Positions 6,220-35,062 of a stretch of 64,000 nucleotides of DNA are shown piece after piece. Position numbers and translations under genes: made by a program. How positions within the stretch are numbered: position 1 is the first letter of the stretch; each line of letters begins with the position of its first letter. Source of the stretch: Escherichia coli (GTDB taxonomy: Bacteria; Pseudomonadota; Gammaproteobacteria; Enterobacterales; Enterobacteriaceae); the NCBI RefSeq assembly GCF_003018255.1, contig NZ_CP027440.1; one strand, 5' to 3'. The notes under the pieces were generated by a model. It was not told the origin of the DNA. It worked only from the letters and a program-made list of their open reading frames with translations, and ran no database searches.

Positions 6220-6227
6220 GTAAAAAA

Positions 6228-6250
6228 TAGGCCCGATAACTCGGGCCTTG
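6228..6250. terminator. hairpin GGCCCGATAACTCGGGCC between the convergent ynaJ and uspE genes
   Basis: Perfect inverted repeat seen directly in the sequence immediately after both stop codons. Confidence 0.5.
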
Positions 6251-6268
6251 TCAGTTATTGAAGAGTCG

Positions 6269-9047: not shown

Positions 9048-9376
9048 GCCATCACATGGATCGAGGGTGGGATAATTCCAGTCAGCGAAATTTTACCGTA
9101 GGCTATCTGTTATTTGATTCTGTGGCGTGATAGCCGCCAGACACCACTGATCTCGTCACTCATTCCCCAATCCCGGCGAGAATGTGGTTATTTACAGAGC
9201 TAAAAAATGAATAAAAAAATAGAGCCTGTCGACATCCGCCAGACTCTACAGTACACACAGCAGTGCATCCTCGTCTTAAATCCGGCCTGGGGTCCTGGTG
9301 ACCGGTGACAGTGTTATAACGGTTTTACCCATCCGTTGCCAATTTTCTTCAGTGACAGATTTCACGAAAATATAAG

Positions 9377-10192: not shown

Positions 10193-10288
10193 TTACAGTA
10201 GGTATTTTGTCAGAAATCATCAAATAAGCCATGTTAAATTTTAAATATGGCGAATGCAAGTTTCCGGATATATACGGTGTAAAGAGTG

Positions 10289-11317
10289 ATGATAATTTCT
10301 AAAAAACAGCTTATTGGGGTAGTAGCGATCGGTATTATTTTGGCTGGCGTTGTCTTTTTTATCTGGTGGGTAAGCAAAGGAAGATTTATACAGACGACGG
10401 ATGATGCTTACATTGGTGGTAATATTACCACGGTGGCAAGTAAAGTTTCTGGTTATATTTCTGCTATAGAGGTGCGTGATAATCAGAGCGTAAAAAAAGG
10501 CGATATTATCCTGCGTCTCGATGATCGGGATTATCGTGCAAATGTCGCCAGGCTTGAGGCAAAAATAAAAAGTAGAAAAGCCAATCTCGAAAGCATTCAA
10601 GCCACTATTACGATGCAGCAGTCGATAATTCAAAGTGCCAGTGAAACATGGCAGGCAGTAAAACATGAGGAGCAAAAGCGCCTGCGAGATACTGAACGTT
10701 ATGAAAAACTCGTACAATCAGCGGCAATATCGCAGCAAATTATTGATAACGCCAGGTTTGACTACCAGCAGGTCGCAGCAAAGGAGCGCAAAGCCGCGAA
10801 CGATTTCCTGGTGGAGAAGCAACGGCTGGCAGTTTTATCTGCTCAGGAAGAAAACGTACGTGCGAGTATCGAAGAAGTTCAGGCCGCTTTGACTCAGGCA
10901 CTACTGGATCTGGAATATACCCTTGTTCGTGCGCCGATTGATGGCATTGTCGCAAACCGCAGCGCCCATACAGGCAGTTGGGTGGAAGGCGGCACATCGT
11001 TAGTTTCACTTGTACCAGTCAGTGAGTTGTGGGTTGATGCAAATTATAAAGAAAACCAAATAGCGGGAATGAAGCCAGGAATGAAGGCTGAGATCCGTGC
11101 TGATATTCTCAAAGGGGAAGTGTTTCACGGTCACATTGAAAGCCTTTCCCCAGCGACAGGAGCCAGTTTCAGCTTGATTCCGATAGAAAATGCCACTGGC
11201 AATTTCACCAAAATTGTTCAGCGTGTCCCGGTACGGATTGCATTTGACGACGCAAAGGAATTAAAGCAACTTCTTCGCCCGGGACTGTCCGTCACCGTCA
11301 GTGTCGATGAGAGATGA
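10289..11317 (+). CDS. HlyD/EmrA-family membrane fusion protein (efflux pump periplasmic adaptor)
   Basis: 342 aa with an N-terminal TM anchor, coiled-coil middle and EmrA-like overall architecture; ATG at 10289 (a GTG at 10286 is an alternative). Confidence 0.8.
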   Translation: MIISKKQLIGVVAIGIILAGVVFFIWWVSKGRFIQTTDDAYIGGNITTVASKVSGYISAIEVRDNQSVKKGDIILRLDDRDYRANVARLEAKIKSRKANLESIQATITMQQSIIQSASETWQAVKHEEQKRLRDTERYEKLVQSAAISQQIIDNARFDYQQVAAKERKAANDFLVEKQRLAVLSAQEENVRASIEEVQAALTQALLDLEYTLVRAPIDGIVANRSAHTGSWVEGGTSLVSLVPVSELWVDANYKENQIAGMKPGMKAEIRADILKGEVFHGHIESLSPATGASFSLIPIENATGNFTKIVQRVPVRIAFDDAKELKQLLRPGLSVTVSVDER

Positions 11318-15072: not shown

Positions 15073-16077
<1,005 letters not shown>

Positions 16078-16351
16078 CAAAAGCAATTTTCCCGGCTGTC
16101 TGTATACAAAAACGCCGCAAAGTTTGAGCGAAGTCAATAAACTCTCTACCCATTCAGGGCAATATCTCTCTTGCAGGTGAATGCAACGTCAAGCGATGGG
16201 CGTTGCGCTCCATATTGTCTTACTTCCTTTTTTGAATTACTGCATAGCACAATTGATTCGTACGACGCCGACTTTGATGAGTCGGCTTTTTTTTGCCTGT
16301 TATTTGTCAGCGTCTACCCTTTAAGAGTCCACCCAATGACCGGAGGGAAAT

Positions 16352-16525
16352 ATGACGACACTTATTTATTTGCAAATTCCTGTCCCTGAACCGATTCCTG
16401 GCGATCCTGTTCCAGTGCCCGATCCGATCCCTCGCCCGCAACCCATGCCTGACCCACCACCCGACGAAGAACCGATTAAATTGTCGCATCGTGAGCGTAG
16501 ATCTGCGAGGATACGCGCCTGCTAA
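16352..16525 (+). CDS. hypothetical proline-rich small protein (57 aa)
   Basis: ATG preceded by a GGAGGG Shine-Dalgarno at 16342-16347; sequence MTTLIYLQIPVPEPIPGDPVPVPDPIPRPQPMPDPPPDEEP...; below the 60-aa cut-off of the ORF track. Confidence 0.4.
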   Translation: MTTLIYLQIPVPEPIPGDPVPVPDPIPRPQPMPDPPPDEEPIKLSHRERRSARIRAC

Positions 16526-16554
16526 CTTTGCGTCGATGACCACGAGAATAGATT

Positions 16555-17928
16555 GTGACCGCTTTTTCTACCCTGAATGTTTTGCCTCCCGCCCAACTCA
16601 CGAACCTTGATGAGTTGGGTTATTTAACCATGACGCCGGTGCAGGCCGCCGCGCTTCCGGCGATCCTTGCCGGAAAAGATGTTCGCGTGCAGGCGAAAAC
16701 CGGCAGCGGCAAAACGGCGGCTTTTGGCCTCGGCTTGTTACAGCAAATTGATGCGTCGCTATTTCAAACCCAGGCTTTAGTGCTGTGTCCTACGCGTGAA
16801 CTGGCGGATCAGGTGGCAGGTGAATTGCGTCGGCTGGCGCGTTTTCTGCCAAATACCAAAATTTTGACGTTGTGCGGTGGTCAACCGTTCGGTATGCAGC
16901 GTGATTCGTTGCAACATGCGCCGCATATTATCGTGGCAACGCCGGGCCGTTTGTTGGATCATCTGCAAAAAGGCACGGTATCACTGGATGCGTTGAATAC
17001 GCTGGTGATGGATGAGGCCGACCGCATGCTGGATATGGGATTTAGCGATGCCATTGATGATGTCATCCGTTTTGCGCCAGCATCTCGACAGACGCTTCTG
17101 TTTTCGGCAACCTGGCCGGAAGCCATCGCCGCAATCAGCGGACGAGTGCAACGCGATCCTTTAGCGATTGAAATTGACTCAACAGATGCTCTGCCACCTA
17201 TTGAACAACAATTTTATGAGACATCCAGCAAAGGCAAAATTCCGTTGTTGCAACGGTTATTAAGTTTGCATCAGCCATCCTCTTGCGTGGTGTTTTGCAA
17301 TACCAAAAAAGATTGCCAGTCTGTCTGCGACGCGCTGAATGAAGTAGGGCAAAGTGCATTGTCGTTACACGGCGATCTGGAGCAACGCGATCGCGATCAG
17401 ACCCTGGTACGTTTTGCTAACGGTAGCGCCCGTGTACTGGTCGCGACTGATGTTGCTGCGCGTGGTCTGGATATAAAATCGCTTGAGCTGGTGGTGAACT
17501 TTGAGCTGGCGTGGGACCCTGAAGTTCATGTACATCGCATCGGTCGTACAGCTCGTGCAGGAAATAGCGGTCTGGCGATCAGTTTCTGTGCCCCGGAAGA
17601 AGCACAGCGGGCCAATATCATTTCTGACATGTTGCAGATAAAACTTAACTGGCAAACGCCGCCAGTTAATAGTTCCATTGTGCCGCTGGAAGCAGAAATG
17701 GCAACGTTATGTATCGATGGCGGGAAAAAAGCCAAAATGCGCCCGGGTGATGTATTAGGTGCGCTGACAGGAGATATCGGGCTTGATGGCGCAGATATTG
17801 GCAAAATCGCCGTGCATCCGGCGCATGTCTATGTCGCGGTGCGTCAGGCTGTTGCTCATAAAGCATGGAAACAGTTACAGGGCGGGAAGATTAAAGGAAA
17901 AACGTGCCGGGTGCGGTTATTAAAATAA
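16555..17928 (+). CDS. dbpA: ATP-dependent RNA helicase DbpA (DEAD-box, 23S rRNA-specific)
   Basis: 457 aa, GTG start, motifs AKTGSGKT, DEAD and SAT present. Confidence 0.9.
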   Translation: MTAFSTLNVLPPAQLTNLDELGYLTMTPVQAAALPAILAGKDVRVQAKTGSGKTAAFGLGLLQQIDASLFQTQALVLCPTRELADQVAGELRRLARFLPNTKILTLCGGQPFGMQRDSLQHAPHIIVATPGRLLDHLQKGTVSLDALNTLVMDEADRMLDMGFSDAIDDVIRFAPASRQTLLFSATWPEAIAAISGRVQRDPLAIEIDSTDALPPIEQQFYETSSKGKIPLLQRLLSLHQPSSCVVFCNTKKDCQSVCDALNEVGQSALSLHGDLEQRDRDQTLVRFANGSARVLVATDVAARGLDIKSLELVVNFELAWDPEVHVHRIGRTARAGNSGLAISFCAPEEAQRANIISDMLQIKLNWQTPPVNSSIVPLEAEMATLCIDGGKKAKMRPGDVLGALTGDIGLDGADIGKIAVHPAHVYVAVRQAVAHKAWKQLQGGKIKGKTCRVRLLK

Positions 17929-17974
17929 TGAAATGTTGAATCGCAGGGTGCAAGAGTAAACATCTTCTTCGGGA

Positions 17975-18056
17975 TTGCCGGATGCGACGCTGGCCGCGTC
18001 TTATCCGGCCTCCATAAGAGTAGCCCGGTAAGCTTGCGCATCGGGCGCTATCCGGG
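17975..18056. repeat. REP (repetitive extragenic palindromic) element(s)
   Basis: GCCGGATGCGACGCTGGCCGCGTCTTATCCGGCC-type palindromic unit between the convergent dbpA and ttcA genes. Confidence 0.55.
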
Positions 18057-18992
18057 TTATTTCACTTCAACCACATTCAGCCGTAACTCATCCAACTGAT
18101 TTTCATCTTCTTCAGGCTGCCAACCCGCCGGTTGTAGAGGGATCTCTTCGCGATCAAACGCCAGATCACCCCCGTTAACCACTTCAGAACCGTGGGTAAT
18201 ACCTTTGAAATCGAACAGGTTGGTATCGCACAGATGCGACGGCACCACATTCTGCATCGCGCTGAACATCGTCTCGATACGCCCTGGATAACGTTTATCC
18301 CAGTCACGCAACATGTCAGCAATCACCTGACGTTGCAGGTTAGGCTGTGAACCGCACAGGTTGCACGGAATAATCGGGAACGCTTTTGCATCGGCAAAGC
18401 GCTGAATATCTTTCTCGCGGCAGTAGGCCAGCGGGCGAATCACGATATGTTTGCCATCATCGCTCATCAGTTTCGGAGGCATACCTTTCATCTTGCCGCC
18501 GTAGAACATATTTAAGAACAACGTTTGCAGGATATCGTCACGATGGTGACCCAGCGCGATCTTCGTCGCTCCCAGTTCCGTTGCGGTACGATAAAGGATA
18601 CCGCGACGAAGACGAGAACACAGTGAGCAAGTGGTTTTGCCCTCCGGAATCTTCTCTTTCACGATACCGTAAGTGTTCTCTTCCACAATCTTGTACTCAA
18701 CGCCCAGCTTTTCAAGATACTCGGGCAGAACGTGTTCCGGAAAGCCCGGTTGCTTTTGATCGAGGTTAACAGCCACCAGCGAAAAATTGATTGGCGCGCT
18801 TTGCTGCAAATTGCGCAGAATTTCCAGCATGGTATAGCTATCTTTACCCCCGGAGAGGCAAACCATGATGCGATCGCCTTCTTCAATCATATTGAAGTCA
18901 GCAATGGCTTCGCCCACGTTACGACGCAGGCGTTTTTGTAATTTGTTCAGGTTGTATATTTCTTTCTTCGTATTCTTTTGATTTTCTTGCAT
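18057..18992 (-). CDS. ttcA: tRNA 2-thiocytidine(32) synthetase TtcA
   Basis: 311 aa with SGGKDS PP-loop motif and CxxC pairs; its 5' end overlaps the prophage attL. Confidence 0.9.
18943..18957. other. attL core of the Rac-like prophage (TTGTTCAGGTTGTAT), inside the ttcA 5' coding region
   Basis: The same 15-mer recurs at 32764-32778 with diverged but related flanks. Confidence 0.55.
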
Positions 18993-19043
18993 TATTTCAG
19001 TTCTCTGGTACTAAATGGGGCAAATTGGGGGCAAACTTTGCAA

Positions 19044-20279
19044 CTACGATAACCGCGCATTCAACATGGCTACCTGTTCGTCGTTCATGTCATCAATCCA
19101 CATACCGTAAATTTCATACACCATCTGCGCAGTTTCATGCCCCATCTGGCTGGCTATAAACGCCGGGTTCGCTCCTGCCGTCAACAGCCAGCAGGCAAAA
19201 GTATGCCGCGTATGGTACGGATTACGGCGGCGAATACCAGCACGTTTTACTGCTGCATTCCATCTCGCACCCAAACTGCTTACCGAGTAATAAGGTTTCT
19301 GTTTTCCGTTACACACTCTGGGCATGAAAACAAAATGCAGTTTTTGCTTTTCGGTTCTGCCGTACTCCCGATGATAAAAAGTGATTTCGCTTTTGCGATG
19401 ATGCCCGGTCAGTTTGTATTGCTCCTTCAGTGCTTCAAGAGCAGGCTGCAGTAGTGTTACCGTCCGGATCCCCGCATTTGTTTTTGGGGGACCGAACATA
19501 TCAAGTATCGTCAGGTTTCTTCTGACATTCACAACTCCCTTCTCGAAATCCACATCCTCCCACGCCAGAGCAGCCAGTTCCCCGTGACGAAGCCCGGAGT
19601 ATACGGCAAATTTCCACAAGTTCTGGCTCTGTCCTTTTTCACTTTCCATTAATGCATTGAATTCTGTTTTAGATAACGGGTCAGGCTTTATTCTGTTTCT
19701 CTGTAATTTTTTTACTCCTTCAAATGGTTTGGTTGATATAAATCCCGACTGATACGCAAAACGTAACAACGAACAGAGCAGGGCGATATAATTATCAACT
19801 GTGCGCACGGTTCTTCCTTTTTTGTTGGATCTTGGATTATCTAGGTAAAGCGTTTCTCCATGCAGCAGTTCATTCCGGTAGTTTAAGATATCGCTATAAC
19901 GAATATGCGATATCGGGGTACTCTCACAAATTATTATCCTGAGTGTTTTTAATTGTGATTTCGTTTTCTTCATTGTGTTTGTTGTTAACTCTGTTTCTTT
20001 AATTTTTGTCCAGATATCACAAAGCTCCCCGAACGTTTTTATGACCCTCGTTGTCACCATTTTTGCCCCAGTGCTGGACTGGGGAAAACGTCTTAAATAC
20101 TCAAACTCACCGGAATTGATTTCATGAACTATCAACGCTCTTAAATTCCCGGCTTTTTTAATGTTACTGTTAGTAACCTCCCAGCCTTTCAATGTTTCCC
20201 GACATCGTTTTCCTCGAAACATGAACCAGATGCGAATGTATTTACCTCGAATCTCGACACCTGTTGGTAATTTAGACAT
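19044..20279 (-). CDS. intR: Rac prophage tyrosine integrase IntR
   Basis: 411 aa with a C-terminal tyrosine-recombinase catalytic region (HxxR ... Y); immediately inside attL. Confidence 0.9.
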   Translation of the reverse strand: MSKLPTGVEIRGKYIRIWFMFRGKRCRETLKGWEVTNSNIKKAGNLRALIVHEINSGEFEYLRRFPQSSTGAKMVTTRVIKTFGELCDIWTKIKETELTTNTMKKTKSQLKTLRIIICESTPISHIRYSDILNYRNELLHGETLYLDNPRSNKKGRTVRTVDNYIALLCSLLRFAYQSGFISTKPFEGVKKLQRNRIKPDPLSKTEFNALMESEKGQSQNLWKFAVYSGLRHGELAALAWEDVDFEKGVVNVRRNLTILDMFGPPKTNAGIRTVTLLQPALEALKEQYKLTGHHRKSEITFYHREYGRTEKQKLHFVFMPRVCNGKQKPYYSVSSLGARWNAAVKRAGIRRRNPYHTRHTFACWLLTAGANPAFIASQMGHETAQMVYEIYGMWIDDMNDEQVAMLNARLS

Positions 20280-20280
20280 A

Positions 20281-20496
20281 TCATGAGTCTTTGATAAACT
20301 GATTTATCTTTGGATAGTTGTACCAGATAATTCCTCGCTTACTGTCTGGCTTCCCTAAAGGAGATACTCGTTTGAAGTGGAAGCCTTCCACCCAACAGTT
20401 CTGGCGGTATGCTTCAATTTGTCTGGCCCCCAGACCAGTGCGAAGCATCAGGCCGTATTCAACCATCCACTCTTCATTAAAGATTACTTGTGCCAT
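20281..20496 (-). CDS. xisR: excisionase-like protein XisR (YdaQ)
   Basis: Start at [11 protein letters not shown] gives 71 aa; directly upstream of intR. Confidence 0.7.
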
Positions 20497-20595
20497 CGCA
20501 TTACCTCTGGCAGGCGCCAATGTTAGACTTAAATTGACGCCCGATGTTGATTATTAATAATCAGCTATGAAGTTTTAATTTGAATACAATGCAAT

Positions 20596-20796
20596 TCACG
20601 AGGACTGAAGTTTCTCGCAATTAAAATTTATCAGTTTTACTTTCTGCTCTCTGGAAACGCCTGCTTCTTTTTTACCTGAGAGCATTTTTTCGCATTCTGA
20701 TTTAGTTAGTTTATATTTTGAATATCTTGTCCAGTTAGTAGGAGTGCCACCTTCCTTTTCAATAGTGGCGGTAATTTTATACATGAACACCTCCAT
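20596..20796 (-). CDS. rcbA: Rac prophage protein RcbA (YdaC)-like
   Basis: ORF 20596..20856; contains MYKITATIEKEGGTPTNW...; exact start is ambiguous (Met at 20796 or 20784). Confidence 0.5.
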   Translation of the reverse strand: MEVFMYKITATIEKEGGTPTNWTRYSKYKLTKSECEKMLSGKKEAGVSREQKVKLINFNCEKLQSS

Positions 20797-20971
20797 TATT
20801 ATTTCCAGTGGTTCGTTTATTCCATCTTTCGAGTGCTTCTTTTTCACTTCCACCATAACCGGTTCGGGATTCGCATCCGTTACACTTCGCTCGGTAATAT
20901 CCTGAAATGGCTTTCACCGTTACTGATGGACAACCACAAAATGGACATGGTTTAACATTGTCATATCTCAT
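20777..20971 (-). CDS. ralR: restriction alleviation protein RalR (Lar), zinc-finger small protein
   Basis: Start at MRYDNVKPCPFCGCPSV gives 64 aa with two CxxC pairs. Confidence 0.75.
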   Translation of the reverse strand: MRYDNVKPCPFCGCPSVTVKAISGYYRAKCNGCESRTGYGGSEKEALERWNKRTTGNNNGGVHV

Positions 20972-21027
20972 AATTTTTCTCATAAAAAATATTTCAAGTT
21001 GGCGGTGCATTACACCGCCAGGCTGAA

Positions 21028-21843
<816 letters not shown>

Positions 21844-21909: not shown

Positions 21910-22509
21910 ATGCGTAAACTTTATGCCGCCATTTTGTCCGCAGCCATTTGTCTGGCCGTATCCGGTGCGCCTGCATGGGCGTCTGAACATCAGTCCACGC
22001 TGAGCGCGGGGTATCTTCATGCCCGGACGAACGTTCCCGGCAGTGATGATCTGAACGGGATTAACGTGAAATACCGTTATGAGTTTACGGACACACTGGG
22101 GATGGTGACGTCATTCAGCTATGCAGGAGACAAGAATCGTCAGCTGACCCGTTACAGCGATACCCGCTGGCATGAAGATTCCGTTCGTAACCGCTGGTTC
22201 AGCGTAATGGCGGGGCCGTCTGTGCGCGTGAATGAATGGTTCAGCGCGTATGCGATGGCGGGTGTGGCTTACAGCCGTGTGTCGACTTTTTCCGGGGATT
22301 ATATCCGCGTAACTGACAATAAGGGGAAAACGCACGATGTGCTGACCGGAAGTGATGACGGTCGCCACAGCAACACGTCTCTGGCGTGGGGGGCTGGCGT
22401 GCAGTTTAACCCGACCGAATCCGTGGCCATTGATATTGCTTATGAAGGCTCCGGCAGTGGTGACTGGCGCACTGACGGTTTCATCGTGGGTGTCGGTTAT
22501 AAATTCTGA
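21910..22509 (+). CDS. lom: Lom/Ail/OmpX-family outer-membrane beta-barrel protein (prophage Lom)
   Basis: 199 aa with signal peptide, alternating beta-strand pattern and C-terminal GYKF. Confidence 0.85.
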   Translation: MRKLYAAILSAAICLAVSGAPAWASEHQSTLSAGYLHARTNVPGSDDLNGINVKYRYEFTDTLGMVTSFSYAGDKNRQLTRYSDTRWHEDSVRNRWFSVMAGPSVRVNEWFSAYAMAGVAYSRVSTFSGDYIRVTDNKGKTHDVLTGSDDGRHSNTSLAWGAGVQFNPTESVAIDIAYEGSGSGDWRTDGFIVGVGYKF

Positions 22510-22573
22510 TTAGCCAGGTAACACAGTGTTATGACAGCCCGCCGGTTCAGGCGGGCTTTTTTGTGGGGTGAAT

Positions 22574-25500
22574 ATGGCAGTAAAGATTTCAGGTGTACTG
22601 AAAGACGGTGCAGGTAAACCGGTACAGAACTGTACAATCCAGCTGAAAGCAAAACGTAACAGCACCACGGTGGTGGTGAACACGGTGGCCTCAGAAAATC
22701 CGGATGAAGCCGGGCGTTACAGCATGGACGTTGAGTACGGTCAGTACAGCGTTATTCTGTTGGTGGAAGGATTCCCGCCGTCACATGCCGGGACCATCAC
22801 CGTGTATGAAGATTCCCGACCCGGTACGCTGAATGATTTTCTCGGTGCCATGACGGAGGATGATGCCCGTCCGGAGGCTCTGCGCCGTTTTGAACTGATG
22901 GTGGAAGAGGTGGCGCGTAACGCGTCCGCGGTGGCACAGAACACGGCAGCCGCGAAGAAATCAGCCAGCGATGCCAGCACATCAGCCCGTGAGGCGGCAA
23001 CCCATGCGACTGATGCTGCAGATTCAGCACGTGCAGCCAGCACGTCAGCCGGACAGGCCGCTTCGTCGGCTCAGTCAGCGTCTTCCAGCGCAGGAACGGC
23101 ATCAACAAAGGCCACTGAAGCCTCAAAAAGTGCTGCCGCTGCAGAGTCCTCAAAAAGCGCGGCGGCTACCAGTGCCGGTGCGGCGAAAACGTCAGAAACG
23201 AATGCGGCAGCGTCACAACAATCAGCAGCCACTTCTGCATCCACCGCGACCACGAAAGCGTCAGAAGCTGCCACCTCAGCCCGGGATGCGTCGGCCTCAA
23301 AAGAGGCAGCGAAATCATCAGAAACGAACGCATCATCAAGTGCCAGTAGTGCAGCTTCCTCGGCAACGGCGGCAGGAAATTCCGCGAAGGCCGCAAAAAC
23401 GTCTGAGACGAATGCAGATAACAGCGCACAGGCGGCAGCAGACTCACAAACTGCATCAGCAAACTCCGCGACAGCAGCCAAAAAATCAGAAACCAACGCG
23501 AAAAATAGCGAGGCAGCAGCAAAGAGCAGCGAAACCAACGCTAAAGCCAGCGAAACTAATGCTAAATCCAGTGAAACAAACGCGGCGAAATCTGCGGCGG
23601 ACGCACTTAATTATCGCAACCAGGCGCAAGTAATTGTTGGCGATAATATCGGTCTTGGTGAAGTTGCCATGACCTGCACTGATATCTCTGTTGAGCCATC
23701 AGGTTATATTGGATTTGTCAGGATTTACATCTCAGCGAAAGGTTATCCATCAGTAGCGTCTAGTGCCGGTGATAATCTTATTTCTGGTTATATAGTTAGA
23801 TCAGAAGTGTCAACAAAAAGATATTCCGGTCTATTTGTTGGTTCAGATACAAAATCATTGTATTCGTACATTTACAGCCAAAGTTCTGGCCCGCAATGGA
23901 TACGTCATACCCGCAGAGATGAATTAAGCCGCTTTGGTCAAAATGAATCAACAACTCGTATGTATGGTCCAACTGGTGATCGTTTCTTTGAAATCCATAC
24001 TAACGGGAGTTGGGGAGTTTATGATTCTTCTTCTGGACAATGGTCTCCGTTAGGTTTAGCCCAGGGCGGTACTGGTGGAAGAACTATCGAGCAAGCACGT
24101 GCGAACTTGCGGGTAATGTATGAGCAAAAAGCTGGCCTTGCTAATACTGACCTAAACACCCTTACCGGTGAATATTCTGGTTTCTATCAACAACCAACGA
24201 GCGCTTACGCAACAGAAGAATTAAATTACCCAATCGGTCTGGCGGGCGCTTTAATAGTGCTCCAAACGAGAGCCAACACTGCTTCTTCCTGCGTTCAGGT
24301 GTACTACCCTTATAATAATCCGGGAATTACTTATAGACGAATATATGAAGGAGGAAGCGGTACCTGGTCTGAATGGAAGAGAGATGTATCAACAGAAAGG
24401 GTTGAAGAGGGAAAAGAAACAACTTACGTATATTCTACGTATTCTTCAGGCGCACCACGCTTACAGGTTTCCAAATCTGGTTTGTGGGGTTGTCATAATG
24501 GCACTGGCTGGTTGCCATTAGCTGTTGGGCAAGGAGGTACAGGTGCGACAACAGTAGAAGATGCGCGAAACAACTTAAGTCTTGGCGAAAGTAGCGCAGT
24601 TAAATTTAAAAACCTTACTTTAACCGAAGCGCTCGACACGACATTAGGACTGCTTACAAAAACAGGACGAGACTGGAACACGCAGCATACTGATAACATT
24701 AATAAATTTATACCAATTGCAGGCAGTACAAACGGCCCGGCAGGTTCTATGGTTCTTGGCGGCATTCATGTTCAATTTAGTAAAAATTATGCTGTGCAGT
24801 TCGGAGGCCGCAATTCCGGTTTTTGGGGAAGAACAATTGAAAATGGAACGACGCAGGAATGGAAGAAATTACTAACAGTAGACGATCTCAATTCATCTAC
24901 CGATCTTGCTGTCAGGTCATTAACCACATCTAACCCGGTAAAATCTGGCGGAGGGCGAATTGATGTCCTTGGAAGCACGTCAGACTATAGCAAAATGGAT
25001 TGCTTTGTACGTGGGTTTGATAGCACCGGTAATTCTCTCGCGTGGGCGTTGGGTTCATCAGTCGGCGTAAGTAAGATGCTGTCGCTAAAAAATTTCTTTA
25101 GCGGAGCTGAGATACTGTTAAATGGTAATGACGGCGCGGTTCAACTCAAAACAGGTGCTGTTAACGGGGCTAAAGCGCAGGCGCTCACTATCAACAAGGA
25201 TGAGGTTAACTCAACTGTTGATTTAACTCTTACAAAACAAACAGGGACTGGAAATCGTTTTGTTTTACAGAACTTAGGTAATACAGAACTATCATTTGCC
25301 GCAAAAGTATGGGGATCAAGTGATCGACAAAACGTTTTTGAGGTTGGAACGTCTGCTGCGTATCTGTTTTATGCGCAAAAAACGTCAGCAGGCCAGTTGT
25401 TTGATGTAAATGGCGCTATTAATTGCACAACGCTGAATCAGTCATCAGACCGCGACCTTAAAGACGATATTCTCGTTATCAGCGACGCGACGAAAGCAAT

Positions 25501-25879
25501 CCGTAAAATGAACGGATACACCTACACGCTCAGGGAAAACGGGATGCCTTATGCTGGCGTTATTGCACAGGAAGTAATGGAGGCGATACCAGAAGCTGTG
25601 GGATCGTTTACTCATTACGGTGAAGAGTTGCAGGGACCAACGGTTGACGGCAATGAATTACGTGAAGAAACACGTTATCTGAATGTTGACTACGCCGCCG
25701 TGACGGGGTTACTTGTTCAGGTCGCCCGTGAAACAGATGGTCGCGTTACCGCGCTGGAAGAGGAAAACATAACGCTACGTAAAAATCTGGCAACAGCAGG
25801 CACCCGGATCAGCACTCTGGAAAATCAGGTAAGCGAACTGGTTGCACTTGTCGGGCAGTTAACAGGAAGCGAACATTGA
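22574..25879 (+). CDS. stf: side tail fibre protein (lambda Stf-like N-terminus, Ala/Ser-rich repeat shaft, C-terminal endosialidase-type intramolecular chaperone / peptidase S74-like domain)
   Basis: Start MAVKISGVLKDGAGKPVQNC resembles the lambda Stf N-terminus; long AAxxSxTxA repeat region; C-terminal SDRDLKDD ... coiled-coil tail typical of self-cleaving fibre chaperone domains. Confidence 0.8.
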   Translation: MAVKISGVLKDGAGKPVQNCTIQLKAKRNSTTVVVNTVASENPDEAGRYSMDVEYGQYSVILLVEGFPPSHAGTITVYEDSRPGTLNDFLGAMTEDDARPEALRRFELMVEEVARNASAVAQNTAAAKKSASDASTSAREAATHATDAADSARAASTSAGQAASSAQSASSSAGTASTKATEASKSAAAAESSKSAAATSAGAAKTSETNAAASQQSAATSASTATTKASEAATSARDASASKEAAKSSETNASSSASSAASSATAAGNSAKAAKTSETNADNSAQAAADSQTASANSATAAKKSETNAKNSEAAAKSSETNAKASETNAKSSETNAAKSAADALNYRNQAQVIVGDNIGLGEVAMTCTDISVEPSGYIGFVRIYISAKGYPSVASSAGDNLISGYIVRSEVSTKRYSGLFVGSDTKSLYSYIYSQSSGPQWIRHTRRDELSRFGQNESTTRMYGPTGDRFFEIHTNGSWGVYDSSSGQWSPLGLAQGGTGGRTIEQARANLRVMYEQKAGLANTDLNTLTGEYSGFYQQPTSAYATEELNYPIGLAGALIVLQTRANTASSCVQVYYPYNNPGITYRRIYEGGSGTWSEWKRDVSTERVEEGKETTYVYSTYSSGAPRLQVSKSGLWGCHNGTGWLPLAVGQGGTGATTVEDARNNLSLGESSAVKFKNLTLTEALDTTLGLLTKTGRDWNTQHTDNINKFIPIAGSTNGPAGSMVLGGIHVQFSKNYAVQFGGRNSGFWGRTIENGTTQEWKKLLTVDDLNSSTDLAVRSLTTSNPVKSGGGRIDVLGSTSDYSKMDCFVRGFDSTGNSLAWALGSSVGVSKMLSLKNFFSGAEILLNGNDGAVQLKTGAVNGAKAQALTINKDEVNSTVDLTLTKQTGTGNRFVLQNLGNTELSFAAKVWGSSDRQNVFEVGTSAAYLFYAQKTSAGQLFDVNGAINCTTLNQSSDRDLKDDILVISDATKAIRKMNGYTYTLRENGMPYAGVIAQEVMEAIPEAVGSFTHYGEELQGPTVDGNELREETRYLNVDYAAVTGLLVQVARETDGRVTALEEENITLRKNLATAGTRISTLENQVSELVALVGQLTGSEH

Positions 25880-26086
25880 TATCCTTCAAGCCCTGAAGGA
25901 GGCTGTTCCTGGTACGTTCAGACTGTTGTTGAGCTGGAAATCGCAACGGAGGAAGAAACTTCGTTGCTGGAAGTCTGGAAAAAGTATCGGGTGTTGCTGA
26001 ACCGTGTTGATACATCAACTGCACCTGATGTTGATTGGCCAGCAGCACCGAAGTGTAATTCATTAGAACTCATCACCTGTGAATAA
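25880..26086 (+). pseudogene. orphan 3' remnant of a tail-fibre-assembly (tfa) gene
   Basis: In frame with stf immediately after its stop, no start codon; encodes ...[29 protein letters not shown]..., a Tfa-type C-terminal motif by recollection. Confidence 0.45.
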
Positions 26087-26687
26087 TATCTGTTTTTGAG
26101 TAAGTTAGTAATAATCACTTAAATGTGTTATGAGTTTGTTGAGGCGTGATTTGCAATAGGATAGAGAGTACGATTATGGATTGAGAATAAGAAAGCGCCA
26201 TGAAAGAGTTTCATGGCGAGTACATAAACGTACAAAATATGATGAAAGTAGAGTGGCATAAGCCACTATGTTAACTTATAGCAATAGGGAAGATAAGTAA
26301 ATAATATTTCTTGAGTATAGTGTAAGTCGTTCATTGTAAAGCGTTAATGTTATCTATATTGTTTATCTTAAAATAAGGTGTATAAACCAAACTTTTGAGC
26401 TAAAAGTTTAAAGAGTATTAGTGCAAAAATAATGTTTAATAAGATAATCAATTTGCTTTGTATCTTCATTTCGAAAGATTGCTAAGTAACGTTAATTACC
26501 AAAACGATAGATCAGAATTATCTTAGAGTCAATGACTTTAGGTTTGTTTATAATGTAAATATTTTCTATTTGTTATAAGTTTTCTTAATATAGTCACCCA
26601 TGCAACTTGTTCCGTGTGGAGATTAAAGGTTAAAATTTAATGCGAAGATGGAATTATATTATATTTGTTATAATTAATTTAACCTTA

Positions 26688-26770
26688 ACATCGTTGCTGG
26701 CGGCATGGAAGAAATATCGGGTCTTGCTGATGTCGTGTTGGCACTTCCTTAGTGCCGGATATCGAGTGGC
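26688..26770 (+). pseudogene. second, frameshifted tfa-like C-terminal remnant
   Basis: Encodes ...[10 protein letters not shown] then, after a +1 shift, RVGTSLVPDIEWPAAPIG; a degenerate direct repeat of 25955-26060. Confidence 0.3.
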
Positions 26771-26987
26771 CAGCTGCACCTATAGGGTAAAAATATAGTT
26801 CTATATGGGAGCGCTATTTTTACAATATAAATGCTGAACGGAAGAATCTAACCAGTTACAAAAAACATAGTTATGTAATCCAGTTGCCTGGGCATGCGTG
26901 TGATGTTGATAGCTATTACTGTATCTTCCGTTCACTTACCTTATTGTGAACAGTTATATATAATTTGATCTGCTCTTATTCAGCCTG

Positions 26988-28190
26988 CTAGGCTGCTGTA
27001 AATCTTCGATACTTTCTTAACATAAAGATCATGATTAGAATAATTGAAAGTAAGTAAACAATCCAAATGGTGATATTTCGTTCAATTAAAAAGCTACCAA
27101 TTCCGCCGATCACTGAAGGAATCACCAGAGAAGCGGCCCCCATTAACGCAGATGTGGCACCCAGACTGGTACGTTGGCTGGACATAGTTAGGTAAGTATA
27201 AAGTGATTCGAACATACCTCCGGCAAACATCAAAACAATGAAGAATAATATAAAAACATTGACATGATGAACGAATATTATTAGCGGAGTGCACAATACG
27301 ATAAATGAAGCAATGAGCTTCAGCCATAAACTCAAAATTTGTGGTGCAGACCGCTTCTTAAGTAGTTTACCTGATAGTGCTGCTCCCAGCAGAAGGAATC
27401 CTCCAATAATTGATGAGATAACACCAAATTGCGTAGATGAGTATCCATACTTAACCATCAAAATAAATGGGGAAGCTGTGACATAACAATAAATTAGAGA
27501 GAATGAAAGTCCAAGAGAAAGGCAAGGTAGATAAAATCTTGGTTGCTTACTTATCTCTTTGTACGTAAGAAATGATGATTTTAGTGAATATGTAATCCGT
27601 TTTTTATGACTGAGTGTTTCAGGGAAGTTAAAATAGACATACGTTAATGTTACAACAGAATATCCTAATATCATTAGAAAAATTGCACGCCATCCCCATA
27701 CATCATTAATTATTCCTCCCAGCAGTGGAGAAGCAATAGGCACGACACCTTCAATAGTTATGATAATAGCGTACAGTGTAGCAGCCACTGAACCGCGTGT
27801 TACATCACGAACGGCACTAATTGCTGTAACCAGAGTTATTGATATAGAAAGCCCCTGTATGATGCGTATTGTAAGAAACGTACCCAATCCGGTCGAGAGT
27901 GTGAGGCAATATGTTGTCACACAATAAATAATAGCACCTGAAAGCATAATTCTTCGACGACCAATAGAATCAGATAATGGGCCAAAAATTAGCTGTCCAA
28001 AACCTATACAAAGGGTATAAACCATGATAGACAATTGCATGGACGGGATGTTTTGTCTAAATTCTTTTGCGATGTCAGGAATTGAAGGCAAATAAGTGTC
28101 CACACCTAGAATGCCCATAATAGTCAGCAGCGATAGGCCAATAGTAAAGAAAAGTATATTCTTTCTGTGAATAACAACTTGTGATTTCAT
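26988..28190 (-). CDS. MFS transporter (12-TMS, Bcr/CflA-like drug:H+ antiporter family), AT-rich foreign gene
   Basis: 400 aa, highly hydrophobic, with the MFS signature GPLSDSIGRRR after TM2; GC content visibly far below the flanking DNA. Confidence 0.8.
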   Translation of the reverse strand: MKSQVVIHRKNILFFTIGLSLLTIMGILGVDTYLPSIPDIAKEFRQNIPSMQLSIMVYTLCIGFGQLIFGPLSDSIGRRRIMLSGAIIYCVTTYCLTLSTGLGTFLTIRIIQGLSISITLVTAISAVRDVTRGSVAATLYAIIITIEGVVPIASPLLGGIINDVWGWRAIFLMILGYSVVTLTYVYFNFPETLSHKKRITYSLKSSFLTYKEISKQPRFYLPCLSLGLSFSLIYCYVTASPFILMVKYGYSSTQFGVISSIIGGFLLLGAALSGKLLKKRSAPQILSLWLKLIASFIVLCTPLIIFVHHVNVFILFFIVLMFAGGMFESLYTYLTMSSQRTSLGATSALMGAASLVIPSVIGGIGSFLIERNITIWIVYLLSIILIMIFMLRKYRRFTAA

Positions 28191-28952
28191 TATTTATCAC
28201 CATGAATAAATTAAAAGAATGAAAAAAACTCCATTTAAATGGAAGGAGGTGGATAATTATCGTGTAGGCAATACAACAGAGTTGAAAAGAACTGTCAAAC
28301 TTTTAACTCAAAAAAGTGAGATGTGAATCACAGACATAAAAATCATCTTTTTCAGCCCTATGGTTCAGTTAAATTTGATTGTTATCGTACGAAGGTTTGA
28401 ACGTGTGTGTGCGTATGCGGTATTTTTTCTTGCGAGTGCCGGAGTTATGAGAGCGTTGTATTAACCTTCATAATCTGACCTATTCAATTGATTCCAGTAC
28501 ACCAATGGGTATTTTGGTGTTATGGTATGTGACTCCAAATAAAATGGAGCGTGAACTGATAGTTGTGCGAACAAAAGTCGGACTAGAAACCGCTCGGGTA
28601 CAGTGGCGAATTGGAGTTGGCGACCCAAACTGACCTAGGAACAATCGTTGCAGATCGGACGATTAATTTCATCAGAAATTCCTCGCTAAAAGGTGGCTAT
28701 CACTGTGATGTTAACGTATCTAATTTGTACAAGAAATTTCTGCGGGGGAAAATGAAACCGCAGACTCGTTGTATGCAAAAACGTGCTGCGGCTAACTGGT
28801 GAACTTTCGATAGTGCGGGTATTGAATGATTTCTAGGCGTTATCGATTTTACGTATTTTTTGCATGATAGAATTCGTACCTCCTCCCAACGACCTTCCAT
28901 GGCTTTCCGGACTTCTGTAGGCCGGCGGACGATGCTGTCCTCGGATGTTGTG

Positions 28953-29810
28953 CTAATTGGGTGATAACAGATCCTGTGTATGGGAGTTTCCCTTTGTGCG
29001 TGCGTTGATGCTGGTAACGGTAAACGTCATGATGAACACGACCGCGAATAAGACGACAATCGTCGGAGCTGGTGCGCTGTCGATAAAAAAGGACAACCAG
29101 ACACCAGTCATTGACACTATTACCGATATGCCAGTCGCCAGTAGGAGCGCAATATGAAAGCGTTGTGTCAGGAGTACCGCAATGGCGCCAGGCGCTATGA
29201 GCAGAGAAATGGAGAGAATGATACCTACCGCTTTCAGCGTCGCCACAATGGTCAGAGAGACCATGCACAGCAGCCCATAATGCAGCCATCTCGTATGCAA
29301 ACCGCTTACCTGCGCCTGTTGATAATCAAAGCTGAACAGCAAAAAATCCCGCCATTTTACGCTAATAACAAGTGTAACCAGCCCGGCAATAATCATCGTC
29401 TGGATTATATCGCCGATGGTTATCCCGAGCATGTCGCCGAAAAGAATATGGTCAAGATGTACGTCTGGTTTGACTGCAATATACAAGATCAGACCTGCGG
29501 CAAACATGCCAGAAAAAACAATCCCCATCACTGTATCTTGCTTGATTCGGCTGTTGTCTTTCAGGTATCCCGTCGCCACCGCGCAGAATACTCCGGCGAC
29601 GAATGCCCCTGTAGCTAAAGGTAACCCCAGAATCCAGGCAAGCACGATGCCAGGAAAAACTGCATGACTCATCGCGTCACCCATCAGTGCCCAACCTTTC
29701 AGGACCAGAAAGACCGACAGCAGCGCACAGGGTATGGAAACTACCAGTGAAATCAGCAGTGCGTGACTCATAAAGGTGAACTGCAGTGGCTCCAGTAATA
29801 ATGCCATCAT
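28953..29810 (-). CDS. sitD: Mn/Fe ABC transporter permease SitD
   Basis: 285 aa integral membrane permease; last gene of the four-gene operon; overlaps sitC by 4 bp. Confidence 0.9.
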   Translation of the reverse strand: MMALLLEPLQFTFMSHALLISLVVSIPCALLSVFLVLKGWALMGDAMSHAVFPGIVLAWILGLPLATGAFVAGVFCAVATGYLKDNSRIKQDTVMGIVFSGMFAAGLILYIAVKPDVHLDHILFGDMLGITIGDIIQTMIIAGLVTLVISVKWRDFLLFSFDYQQAQVSGLHTRWLHYGLLCMVSLTIVATLKAVGIILSISLLIAPGAIAVLLTQRFHIALLLATGISVIVSMTGVWLSFFIDSAPAPTIVVLFAVVFIMTFTVTSINARTKGNSHTQDLLSPN

Positions 29811-30664
29811 GAGCGATCCTCCAGCGCCTTATGCGCACGCCGACGATTTGCCAAAAGCCCATGGGTGGGCGCAAAGACAAATGCTAAAAGAAACAGCAGT
29901 GTCTGCGCCACCACGATGATTCCACCTGTCGCGCCGTCCAGAAAGTAACTGACCCACGAGCCGAGGAAACTGGTTACACTGCCAATAGTTACAGCAATCA
30001 TGAGCAGGCGGGGAAAACGATCGGTTAACAACCATGCTGTTGCACCGGGAGTCACCACCAGACAGATCACCAGAAAGGCACCAACCGTTTGCAGCGCCGC
30101 AACGGTCGAAACCGACAGCAGGGTGAAGAAGAGGAGTTTTAATCTGCCCGGATGCAATCCAATAGCACGGGCGTGATTCTCGTCGAAAAAGGTCACCATA
30201 AGATCTTTCCATTTGAAAAAAAGCACGATGATCGAGAGAATGCCAATGATAGTGAGTTGCAGGATATCCGCCGGATCGATTGCCAGAATATTGCCCAGGA
30301 CGATGGTCTGAATGTTCACAGATGTCGGGTTCAATGACACCATAAACAGCCCCAGGCCAAAAAAGGATGAGAAGATCAGGCCGATGATGGCATCTTCTTT
30401 TAAGCGGGTGCGTTGGTTAAGAAACAGCATGCTGCCCGCAGCCAGTCCGCCGGAAAAGAAGGCTCCCAGAGAAAACGGAAGCCCCAGCATATATGCTCCC
30501 GCAACACCCGGGACAATAGAGTGCGACAACGCATCGCCAATCAGCGACCAGCCTTTTAGCATCAGATAGCATGACAGGAAAGCGCAGAGACCGCCGACCA
30601 TCGCCGAGACCCACATCGCATTGAGCATATATTCATAGCTGAAGGGTTCCAGTAGCACGTTCAT
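29807..30664 (-). CDS. sitC: Mn/Fe ABC transporter permease SitC
   Basis: 285 aa permease paralogous to SitD; 4-bp overlaps on both sides. Confidence 0.9.
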
Positions 30665-31488
30665 CTTTCTTCCCTCTGCACCGCTGACGGTCGATGAGCC
30701 ACAAAAGGGCGTTCATCGTCAGTAATAATGCTTTCTTCCGAGCCGTTAAGTGTGACATGGCGCAGTACGCCGCTAAAAGCCAGCTCCAGGTTCTCGGCTG
30801 TAAAAGTGGTGTCTGTCGGCCCGCTTGCCAGGACGGTGCCTTTGACCATGACCGTATAATCGCAAAATGTCGTGACGGATCCGAGATTGTGTGTTGAGAC
30901 AAGCATCGTTTTGCCTTCCGCGCGTAACTCCCTCAACAGGCTGATGATTTTGGCTTCGGTTTTCACATCAACGCCAGTAAAAGGTTCATCCAGCAGGATC
31001 ACATCACCCTGCTGTGCAATCGCTCTCGCCAGAAAGACGCGTTTCTTTTGTCCACCGGAAAGCTCGCCGATTTGTCGATGGCGAAAATTCACCATATCGA
31101 CACGTTCCAGCGCATCGGTGACAATTTGACGATCCCTCTTTTTGGCGATACGCAACATACCCATATGCCCATAGCGGCCCATCATCACCACATCTTCCAC
31201 CAGTACAGGAAATGACCAGTCAACCTCTTCTGACTGAGGGACGTAGGCAACCAGGTTTTTCTGTAACGCCTGTCGCGTGGGAATACCCAGAACAGATATC
31301 TTTCCGCTGGTCAGACGCACAAATCCCATAATCGCTTTAAACAACGTCGATTTTCCGGAACCGTTTACCCCAACCAGAGCGGCAATAGATCCACTTGGTA
31401 CTGTGAAGGATGCATCGCGCAGTGCTGTGTGCCCGTTACGCCAGGTGACAGTAACATCATTAACGACAATGCCTGCAGATTGCATCAT
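30661..31488 (-). CDS. sitB: Mn/Fe ABC transporter ATP-binding protein SitB
   Basis: 275 aa with Walker [13 protein letters not shown] signature LSGGQKKR and Walker B ILLDEP. Confidence 0.9.
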
Positions 31489-32402
31489 TATTTCTCCCTT
31501 TTCCCGGCTTTAATTCCCTGTACCAGCGTACTGGTAGTAACCTTAAGAAGGTCGATATACGTCGGTACCGGGCCGTTTTCTGTGCTCAGGGAATCGACAT
31601 AGAGCACACCGCCGTAGTGTGCGCCGGTTTCACGCGCAACCTGACGCGCTGGTTTATCGGAAATCGTACTCTCGCTAAAGACTGCCGGGATATGATTTTT
31701 CTTAACTATATCAACAACCTTACGTACCTGTTGCGGTGTTCCTTGTTGATCGGCATTAATCGGCCACAGATAAAGCTCTTTTAGCCCCAAATCGCGTGCG
31801 AGATAAGAAAAAGCCCCTTCACTGGTGACCATCCACCGCTGATTCTCAGGGAGTTCCGTAATCTGCTTACGCAGGGGGGCAAGGGTTTGGGTAATCTTGG
31901 CTTTATAAGTATCGGCATTACGTTGGTAGGTTTGTGCATTAGCGGGATCGTATTTTATCAACGCATCACGAATATTATCGACGTAAATCAGAGCATTATC
32001 TGGCGACATCCATGCATGGGGGTTAGGTTTGCCCTCATAGGGGCCTTCGGTGATCCCTACTGGCGTCACACCCGAAGAGACAATTACTTCTGGAACCCCA
32101 TTGAGATGCTGGTAAAAGCGTTGGAACCACAATTCCAGATTCATACCATTGGCGAGGATCAGTTGTGCCCCCTGCGCACGTTTAATATCGCCAGGGGTAG
32201 GCTGATACTCATGAATTTCTGCACCGGGCTTGGTTATGGATGAGACTTCTGCAGCATCTCCAGCCACGTTTTTGGCCATATCCGCGATGATGGTAAATGT
32301 TGTAATGACCTTGAATTTTTCAGTTGCACTTGCCTGAAATGCGATCGAGCAGGTGAGGGCGAGGCACCCCAAGAGCATGGTTACTTTTTTTATTGAGTGC
32401 AT
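31488..32402 (-). CDS. sitA: periplasmic Mn/Fe-binding protein SitA (cluster A-I substrate-binding protein)
   Basis: 304 aa with signal peptide; first gene of the operon; 1-bp overlap with sitB. Confidence 0.9.
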
Positions 32403-32434
32403 AATTTAGTACCTATAGTGAGCAAAATTAGAAC

Positions 32435-32456
32435 AAACATAGCAACGGCTATGTTT
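32435..32456. promoter_or_regulatory. MntR box (perfect palindrome AAACATAGC-N4-GCTATGTTT) in the sitA promoter
   Basis: Perfect 9-bp inverted repeat 33 bp upstream of the sitA start; matches the MntR operator consensus as I recall it. Confidence 0.65.
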
Positions 32457-32477
32457 TATAGCACAACCTATACAAAA

Positions 32478-32496
32478 TGAAAATGATTATCATTAA
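32478..32496. promoter_or_regulatory. Fur box in the sitA promoter
   Basis: TGAAAATGATTATCATTAAC matches the GATAATGATAATCATTATC Fur consensus at most positions. Confidence 0.6.
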
Positions 32497-32610
32497 CAAC
32501 TTTGTGGCCCAAAACAGGGATTAGGTTGTTTCCTGCTGGCGACATGGTATTGAGGAAAAAAGCAGGGCAGCTATTAGGCTTTGAAATGACTTTATGAGGA
32601 AAATTTTTGA

Positions 32611-32655
32611 TGGCAAAAATGGGGCAAAACGCTGTAGAAGGGGCAAAAAAGGGGC
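32611..32655. repeat. three direct GGGGCAAAA(A) repeats in the prophage arm next to attR
   Basis: GGGGCAAAAC ... GGGGCAAAAAA GGGGCAAAAAAA; two similar copies lie at 19019-19038 next to attL. Confidence 0.6.
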
Positions 32656-32763
32656 AAAAAAAGAGTGGATTATCGTAGCTTATTGTTGTCGCTGATAATG
32701 TTTAACATATTGAAAAATAAATAAAATACTTATGAGTCAGATAGTTGTGATTTTTGCCCTTAC

Positions 32764-32813
32764 TTGTTCAGGTTGTATTGTTCTTTCTTACTAATTTCTT
32801 GATTTTGCGACAT
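32764..32813 (-). pseudogene. ttcC: ttcC: duplicated ttcA 5' fragment at attR (core TTGTTCAGGTTGTAT at 32764-32778)
   Basis: Reverse strand encodes MSQNQEISKKEQYNLNK-stop, paralogous to the TtcA N-terminus [17 protein letters not shown]. Confidence 0.6.
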
Positions 32814-34697: not shown

Positions 34698-35004
34698 TGA
34701 ATAAATCCTTTAGTTATTTTATTTGCCTTTTATCCCCATTTCGGGGAGTGAAAACATCCTAAAGGAGAAGTTCAGTTAGCCGATAAATATCATTTGTTAC
34801 GCCTTAAGTAAAACCTTAATCAAATAATTCTACGGAAATGATAATAAGTCTGGTGAATGTATTGAAGATAATACATACAAAATAAAAATTATACTTTTAA
34901 TTTGCTATACGTTATTCTGCGCGGGTTATATGCCTTTATTGTCACAGATTTTATTTTCTGTTGGGCCATTGCATTGCTACTGATTTTCCAACATATAAAA
35001 AGAC

Positions 35005-35035
35005 AAGCCCGAACAGTCGTCCGGGCTTTTTTTTA
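35005..35035. terminator. hairpin plus T-run downstream of ydbK (bidirectional appearance)
   Basis: AAGCCCGAACAGTCGTCCGGGCTTTTTTTTT, flanked by A/T runs on both sides. Confidence 0.45.
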
Positions 35036-35062
35036 GAATTGGATAATCCTTATCCAGTGCAT

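Follow-up and report, generated by a model that had tools for sequence, protein, structure and literature searches.

How did a complete metal importer and a transporter gene of much lower GC content come to lie side by side at the end of a prophage, and do they belong together? This question is raised by a 64,000-nucleotide stretch of an Escherichia coli chromosome (hereafter the window; contig NZ_CP027440.1 of assembly GCF_003018255.1), where the sitABCD operon and a gene of the major facilitator superfamily (MFS) occupy positions 26988-32402. A first-pass annotation of this DNA had described a complete sitA-D with overlapping genes and a low-GC MFS gene, both carried as cargo inside a Rac-type prophage next to attR, the MFS gene having been acquired separately. 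Our analysis upholds each of these points. We consider it very probable that the region is the equivalent of the b region (from tfa as far as attR) in a lambdoid prophage that a Rac-type integrase inserted into ttcA, and that it carries two stacked morons, sit and MFS, which would have been acquired independently of each other.

Location of the cargo within the prophage

The gene order in the window is that of the E. coli chromosome, with zntB-dbpA-ttcA on one side of the prophage and uspF-ompN-nifJ(ydbK)-ldhA on the other. Positions 26988-32402 are filled by five minus-strand open reading frames (ORFs), the MFS gene and sitDCBA, which contain no internal stops (Table 1). Neighbouring sit genes share 1-4 bases, and all five proteins, SitABCD and the MFS protein, match RefSeq-annotated proteins of E. 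coli strain 41 at 100%.

The 5' end of ttcA is duplicated across the prophage, as 18943-18985 matches 32764-32806 (43 bp). At attR, where the duplication reaches 32806, it is equivalent to ttcC, a K-12 pseudogene, and uspF comes next. Of the six copies of GGGGCAAA in the window, five share one orientation and are located in the att arms (two in 19017-19035, three in 32621-32658); they are probably arm-type binding sites of IntR. The end of the sit cassette is outside the outermost of these arm repeats, at a distance of about 20-30 bp. Sit and the MFS gene are inside the prophage, between attL and attR, because the att duplication brackets the region and Rac right-arm sequence separates sit from the attR core. 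The attR site thus lies beyond sitA, and sit was not found at this position in genomes without Rac sequences. Integration associated with a tRNA gene was not borne out, with no tRNA genes found within the 64-kb window.

Alternatively, sit could be a chromosomal island that was inserted beside the prophage, outside the att sites, and not phage cargo. The name 'PAI sit' (PAI, pathogenicity island), which the literature uses for sit at several chromosomal locations of Shigella and E. coli, would be in keeping with such an origin, and the boundaries of a prophage that survives as a remnant are open to misjudgement. The same review describes four insertion clusters with phage-like content, and puts the rearrangements of PAI sit down to homologous recombination (PMC7545054). 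However, the attR core, with the duplicated 5' end of ttcA, is found 362 bp past sitA, 166 bp of Rac right-arm sequence with its arm repeats part sit from that core, and phage 21, Perceval and dozens more contain an identical cassette within their packaged genomes. We therefore regard an island beside the prophage as extremely unlikely.

The attL and attR cores share a 15-bp exact repeat, TTGTTCAGGTTGTAT, and differ at two adjacent positions (TATATTTC in attL versus TATTGTTC in attR). Unlike the cores of the window, those of K-12 are identical to each other. The two-base difference alters the N-terminus of TtcA and may affect excision.

Two modules with separate boundaries

The arrangement of the cargo becomes apparent in the comparison with Rac of E. 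coli K-12 MG1655. The two elements share the ttcA site, the att core and the P arm, and the genes intR-xisR-rcbA-ralR/RalA-recT' together with lomR and the N-terminus of stfR are 96-98% identical. Homology to K-12 covers window positions 16044-21337 (zntB, ttcA, intR, xisR, rcbA, ralR and into recT), 22112-23412 (lomR and the initial ~850 nt of stfR) and 25917-26058 (the 3' end of tfaR). In K-12, sit is absent and tfaR-pinR-ynaE-ynaM takes the place that the MFS module and the tfa remnants have in the window, from which recE through the tail genes are missing. More precisely, pinR-ynaE-ynaM of K-12 is replaced by a 2.7-kb module (26059-28754, GC 0.36) that contains the MFS gene.

To the right of this module, a short stretch of Rac sequence reappears before sit: K-12 locus 25729-25765 equals window 28755-28791, and K-12 locus 25800 onward equals window 32604 onward. 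On the far side of sit, homology to K-12 is back from 32598-32604 onward, where the annotated right end of Rac is still 166 bp away. Since K-12 matches flank sit on both sides, sit is inserted into Rac right-arm sequence, at a gap of ~35 bp; the insertion point lies ~170 bp left of the attR core, just beyond the integrase arm repeats. The first-pass annotation had placed the whole cargo at the pinR/ynaE position of K-12. This holds for the MFS module, which replaces pinR-ynaE-ynaM between the tail fibre gene and attR, but sit was inserted at a separate junction further right.

The boundaries of the MFS module are separate from those of sit, as follows from the comparison with strain 13P484A. 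This strain has an identical locus without the 2.7-kb module, in which the tfa remnant is followed by 36 bp and then by sequence starting at window 28758, so that the module is delimited at 26059-28754. The cargo is also dispensable for the phage, given that K-12 Rac and 13P484A lack one or both modules. The two modules differ in composition as well: the MFS gene has a GC content of 0.377 and a GC content at third codon positions (GC3) of 0.31, versus 0.49-0.52 and 0.49-0.60 for the sit genes, and the GC3 of host genes within the window is 0.45-0.57. A repeat search at the cassette ends (28933 and 32593) returned no flanking direct or inverted repeats, and transposon-like ends were rejected for both the sit cassette and the MFS module.

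Two further observations concern this part of the locus. The slot between tfa' and sitD is variable: nothing is inserted there in 13P484A, the window has the MFS module, and STK77-E has a sensor diguanylate cyclase gene (examples of the slot were read at NZ_CP162190.1, locus 5379-6710, and NZ_CP019280.1, locus 8986-9199). Within the MFS module, a 17-nt inverted repeat (94% complementary; 26393-26409 and 28297-28313), the one notable pair that the repeat search returned, brackets the second tfa remnant and the MFS gene, near the gin/pin remnant. It may be the relic of an invertible segment, or a chance occurrence in AT-rich DNA.

Identity and control of the sit cassette

The SitB protein matches the Mn/Fe ABC (ATP-binding cassette) ATPase equivalog NF011630 (PRK15056) over its full length, at 593.6 bits against a cutoff of 393, and SitA matches YfeA of Yersinia (5uxs) with E = 3.7e-125. 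SitA residues H64, H129, E195 and D270 align with identical YfeA residues at positions 76, 141, 207 and 282; we take these (His76, His141, Glu207 and Asp282) to be the metal ligands in the YfeA structures. SitC and SitD match models of metal ABC permeases (AztB, SloB) with E = 1e-50 to 1e-55, which is under the cutoffs of those models, and both are identical to RefSeq proteins so named. Judging from these matches, sitABCD is a predicted Mn2+/Fe2+ ABC importer of the SitABCD/YfeABCD type (cluster A-I), composed of a binding protein, an ATPase and two permeases. YfeABCD of Yersinia pestis, SitABCD of Salmonella and Sit of Shigella flexneri have the same four-gene architecture. Unlike the operon in the window, that of Salmonella is not in a prophage and lies beside SPI-1 (pathogenicity island 1 of Salmonella).

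Two operators are predicted upstream of sitA. The exact MntR palindrome has a single match in the window and none in 100 shuffles; a Fur box lies further upstream (Table 1). We infer that sitA is under dual control by MntR and Fur, resulting in metal-regulated expression. The cassette would thus be a self-contained unit of 3.7 kb with its own promoter, and it is transcribed in the direction opposite to the phage late genes. The operators and this orientation lead us to read sit as a host-regulated moron that would feed Mn2+/Fe2+ uptake to the lysogen: the host would repress sit when Mn or Fe is replete, and the lysogen would express it under metal limitation. Fur boxes have been described upstream of every phage-borne sit operon (PMC6969025), and the LF82 lysogen, whose active phage Perceval carries sit, expresses it above the prophage background (Misson et al. 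2023, PMC9928086). As a side observation, sitA of the icd-site prophage in strain MS8345 (NZ_CP025401.1, locus 9536-10452) is annotated as frameshifted; hence, sit is not always kept intact.

Carriers of sit

Prophage-borne sit at this locus and in many lambda-like phages is already known. The novelty that the first-pass annotation implied did not survive comparison with the literature, where the arrangement is already published (PMC2808357, PMC6969025, PMC9928086, PMC7545054). The closest counterpart is prophage 042p3 (ROD21) of enteroaggregative E. coli 042, which shares the ttcA/uspF locus and the order J-lom-stf-tfa'-sitDCBA-uspF-ompN-nifJ. It carries sitABCD as cargo at its tail end and has a 15-bp direct repeat at its ends (Chaudhuri et al. 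2010, PMC2808357), which matches the 15-bp exact att repeat of the window. The two differ in that 042p3 is ~50 kb long and lacks the MFS module, whereas the window holds a 13.8-kb remnant with the 2.7-kb MFS module.

The same cassette also travels in phages. In phage 21 (OL657228) it has the same boundaries and orientation, and it is situated between the side tail fibre genes and attP/int, that is, in the b region. The cassette (28933-32593) occurs in ~60 phage records at 98.9-99.1% identity, among them phage 21, Perceval and the Lambda_ev and PhiR series, and sitABCD has been reported on 70% of infant-gut lambda phages (Mathieu et al. 2020, PMC6969025). In contrast to the element in the window, the sit-bearing lambdoid phages are complete and active, most have other integration sites (icd in the case of phage 21), and none has the MFS gene. 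In the genomes of CFT073 and MS8345, the cassette is found at the equal relative position in a prophage at icd.

We surveyed 5426 complete E. coli genomes for the occurrence of these arrangements. The sit operon is present in 2383 of them (44%), at 1682 chromosomal and 1060 plasmid loci, and the junction from sitA through the P arm and attR to uspF was found in 494 genomes. Judged by these occurrences, Rac-type integration is one of several sit carriers. The Rac scaffold as a mobilisation route, as proposed in the first-pass annotation, is therefore correct in general terms, but sit rides on lambdoid phages of several integration specificities and the local carrier is dead. Carriage of sit as a self-regulated cassette by temperate lambdoid phages explains its patchy distribution over several prophage sites and plasmids, as was already established. 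This is of relevance because sitABCD contributes to Mn/Fe acquisition and to resistance against oxidative stress in extraintestinal E. coli and Shigella.

The abundance of plasmid copies brings up another possible origin, in which chromosomal sit derives from a ColV/ColBM-type virulence plasmid by transfer mediated by insertion sequences (IS) and its prophage location is incidental. Besides the plasmid loci counted above, sit is carried by ~1000 plasmids in PLSDB, and IS1 abuts the plasmid copy. However, the window sit is 98.9-99.1% identical to the phage copies versus 96.7% to the plasmid copies (over 28946-32617, after which these are cut by IS1). In the plasmid copy, IS1 truncates the upstream region, which is also more diverged, and neither IS sequences nor terminal repeats were found at the cassette ends in the window. 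We give a plasmid origin next to no credence, and retain the phage moron as the source of sit at this locus.

Two records came up as candidates and were set aside. In pAPEC-O2-ColV (NC_007675.1, locus 7456-7935), sitA is followed by the Rac P arm, the att core, the P' arm and the 3' end of intR, which is an attP configuration, as would arise if part of an excised Rac-type sit phage had been taken up. This arrangement occurs in one of 72,556 PLSDB plasmids and is adjoined by a run of N and a pGEM-like polylinker; as a possible assembly chimera, it was dropped as support for a phage origin of plasmid sit. 'Salmonella phage SPF_0923' (ON032529.1) was considered as an active Rac-type sit phage. 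In it, sitDCBA precedes the E. coli-type host genes uspF and ompN and a portion of nifJ, all located past attR, and by its content the record is a mis-delimited prophage region with host flank and not a packaged genome.

The MFS transporter

Another question regards the identity of the MFS protein. It scores 204.5 bits against the Bcr/CflA model TIGR00710 (cutoff 200.9, a small margin) over profile positions 6-381 of 385. Other cutoffs are not reached: 163.3 bits against the Bcr equivalog NF008314 (cutoff 303), 191 bits against TcaB (cutoff 475) and 154 bits against CmlA/FloR (cutoff 450). The DHA1 motif A reads GPLSDSIGRRR, and the antiporter-type motif C reads SPLLGG (residue 154), with Ser and not Gly in first position. 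A crude hydropathy scan resolved ~10 separate segments over a strict threshold; the full-length profile alignment implies a fold with 12 transmembrane segments. Most likely, the protein is a proton-driven efflux pump of the DHA1 type, efflux being the predicted direction.

Outside E. coli, the best matches of the protein are to Salmonella (~88% aa identity), unnamed metagenomic sequences (82-84%) and Arsenophonus apicola (65%). Beyond the clade formed by these and E. coli, identity is at most 32% over most of the length. The Salmonella chromosomal homologue (88% aa) is located at the end of a prophage, beside a tail-fibre-assembly gene and a dinI-like gene. The neighbours of the Arsenophonus homologue, mgtE and a SopA-like gene, give no hint on the substrate.

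The same slot is occupied by an MFS gene (a bcr homologue) in Salmonella phage FSL SP-016, which is 87% identical to that of the window at the nucleotide level and ~88% at the protein level. Window positions 26931-28839, comprising the MFS gene and gin', are 81% identical to this phage. Along this phage, the tail fibre is followed by the MFS gene ('bicyclomycin efflux system'), a Gin fragment and msgA, then by a different integrase, and sit is absent. The phage-borne gene has been labelled a bicyclomycin-resistance gene (Moreno Switt et al. 2013, PMC3728262). This label is not supported by our model scores because the Bcr equivalog yields 163 bits against its cutoff of 303. The shared ancestry of the window MFS gene with a Salmonella phage gene carrying this label is an addition of the present work.

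The MFS gene was detected in only 35 of the 5426 genomes. Every copy is on the chromosome, identity among them is 99.5% or more, and the MFS-sitD junction is present in 35 genomes. At megablast level, none of the ~60 sit-bearing phage records contains the gene. On these counts, the MFS gene looks to be a rare, recent add-on, and the second, independently acquired moron of the locus. This rarity count and the base-level map of two separately bounded modules are further additions to what was known.

In the region upstream of the MFS start (28211-28298, minus strand), a consensus TTGACA (28298-28293) is combined with a poor -10 element. The leader also contains a weak hairpin (28243-28230), followed by a run of seven T (28228-28222), and a 7-codon mini-ORF, MEFFSFF (28234-28211). 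Its layout is reminiscent of the leader-peptide attenuation of cmlA-type genes.

Do sit and the MFS gene form one unit?

Food for discussion is whether the importer and the putative exporter might constitute one functional unit that serves the homeostasis of metals or metallophores, with a joint transcript from the sitA promoter under Fur/MntR control and with selection acting on both together. They share one strand, the distance from sitD to the downstream MFS gene being 763 bp, and a consensus scan found no intrinsic terminator between them. Moreover, the fold of the sitD 3' flank is not more stable than that of shuffled sequence (z = +2.1). The MFS gene adjoins sitD in all 35 MFS-positive E. 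coli genomes, and its product is weakly similar to the rhizoferrin MFS transporter FslD (90 bits, far under the cutoff of 500). On the other hand, the MFS gene is missing from 459 of the 494 genomes that have sit at this position, and from every sit plasmid and every sit phage. In Salmonella it is found in the absence of sit, both in phage FSL SP-016 and in prophages. The GC3 values are far apart (0.31 for MFS versus ~0.55 for sit), and separate junctions and an intervening gin remnant on the other strand set the two apart. The near identity of the 35 MFS copies is consistent with one recent event. The many sit genomes without the MFS gene, its occurrence without sit in Salmonella and the differences in composition and junctions make such a functional coupling very unlikely.

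A related thought is that read-through from the sit promoter, with no terminator having been found after sitD, might turn the MFS protein of the 35 lineages into an efflux system induced by metal limitation, acting for example on a metallophore, on a toxic metal complex or on a compound derived from the host, in which case it would not be an unrelated hitch-hiker. We consider this a long shot. If true, the tfa-sit slot of ttcA-integrating prophages would be a site that places new cargo under the sit promoter.

The reading that we favour, two morons acquired independently in a b region, has to be weighed against a number of points that speak against it. The presence of the MFS gene next to sitD in every MFS-positive genome is readable as linkage. 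Without a terminator after sitD, sit and the MFS gene may be transcriptionally non-independent. The score against Bcr/CflA is marginal and the cutoffs for Bcr, TcaB and CmlA are missed, which leaves the substrate and even the direction of transport unproven. Finally, with attL and attR mismatched at two core positions, even excision is uncertain.

How the locus could have formed

In the history that we favour, the sit cassette would have entered the right arm of the carrier as a unit. The MFS module would have come via recombination with another phage that had an MFS gene in the same slot, as suggested by the tfa and gin remnants that the module carries along. Such modules would spread by lysogenisation with intact lambdoid phages and be reshuffled by recombination between prophages and phages. 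The carrier later lost everything between recT and J, which leaves sit and the MFS gene as fixed chromosomal genes.

The loss is visible in the remnant itself. The attL-attR span is only ~13.8 kb, and replication, packaging and most tail genes are gone. K-12-like Rac content (recE, kilR, racR, ydaSTUV, trkG and others) is incomplete, as homology ends inside recT at 21337 and returns at lomR. At the junction, recT' and J are fused into a chimeric ORF of 213 aa (21202-21843), and the 14-bp overlap between recT and J homology suggests a microhomology-mediated deletion. Judging by its gene content, the remnant cannot replicate, package or mobilise itself. At most, it is conceivable that IntR and XisR would excise it as a non-replicating circle, because intR, xisR and both att sites are retained.

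Table 1. Positions in the window of the prophage features, cargo genes and predicted regulatory sites.
Feature	Position	Strand	Description
attL core	18943-18968		Within the 5' end of ttcA (18057-18992, minus strand)
P' arm	19017-19035		Two GGGGCAAA repeats
intR	19044-20279	-	Full-length Rac-type tyrosine integrase, 411 aa; K-12 block 97.8% nt identity
xisR (excisionase)	20281-20496	-	Coordinate mapped from K-12 homology block
RalA antitoxin small RNA	20600-20778		Rfam, 217 bits, above gathering threshold
Deletion junction	21324-21337		recT 3' remnant (K-12 homology to 21337) joined to C-terminal fragment of J (homology from 21324)
lom	21910-22509	+	Ail/Lom outer-membrane protein, by homology
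Side tail fibre gene	22568-25879	+	N-terminal ~280 aa K-12 stfR-like (22568-23412); C-terminal part divergent
First tfa 3' remnant	25916-26058	+	tfaR residues 147-191
MFS cargo module	26059-28754		2.7 kb, GC 0.36
AT-rich spacer	26059-26690		GC 0.28; similar to the DNA downstream of tfa in phages ev099 and mEp332
Second tfa 3' remnant	26691-26781	+	Within MFS module
MFS gene	26988-28190	-	400 aa, intact; putative Bcr/CflA-family DHA1 transporter
gin/pin invertase remnant	28541-28740	+	Frameshifted; within MFS module
K-12 Rac match, 37 bp	28755-28791		ynaM-to-right-end sequence; left flank of sit insertion point
sit cassette	28933-32593	-	sitDCBA and ~190 bp promoter region; 3.66 kb, GC 0.50
sitD	28953-29810	-	Intact ORF
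sitC	29807-30664	-	Intact ORF
sitB	30661-31488	-	Intact ORF
sitA	31488-32402	-	Intact ORF
MntR operator	32435-32456		Predicted; exact palindrome AAACATAGCAACGGCTATGTTT, 33 bp upstream of sitA start codon
Fur box	32479-32497		Predicted; 2-3 mismatches to GATAATGATAATCATTATC; sole match in window, 0.03 expected by chance
Rac P arm	32598-32763		K-12-homologous, 166 bp between sit and attR core; three GGGGCAAA repeats at 32621, 32640 and 32651
attR core	32764-32789		TTGTTCAGGTTGTATTGTTCTTTCTT, exact Rac att core; 362 bp past sitA start

Other features of the window

The RalR/RalA toxin-antitoxin pair of Rac survives in the remnant. The Rfam scan of the window did not find a Mn riboswitch. Besides RalA and MicC (34922-35042, 126 bits), both above their gathering thresholds, it returned only sub-threshold matches, two to IS009, which cover the tfa remnants, and a weak one to isrG in the tail fibre gene.

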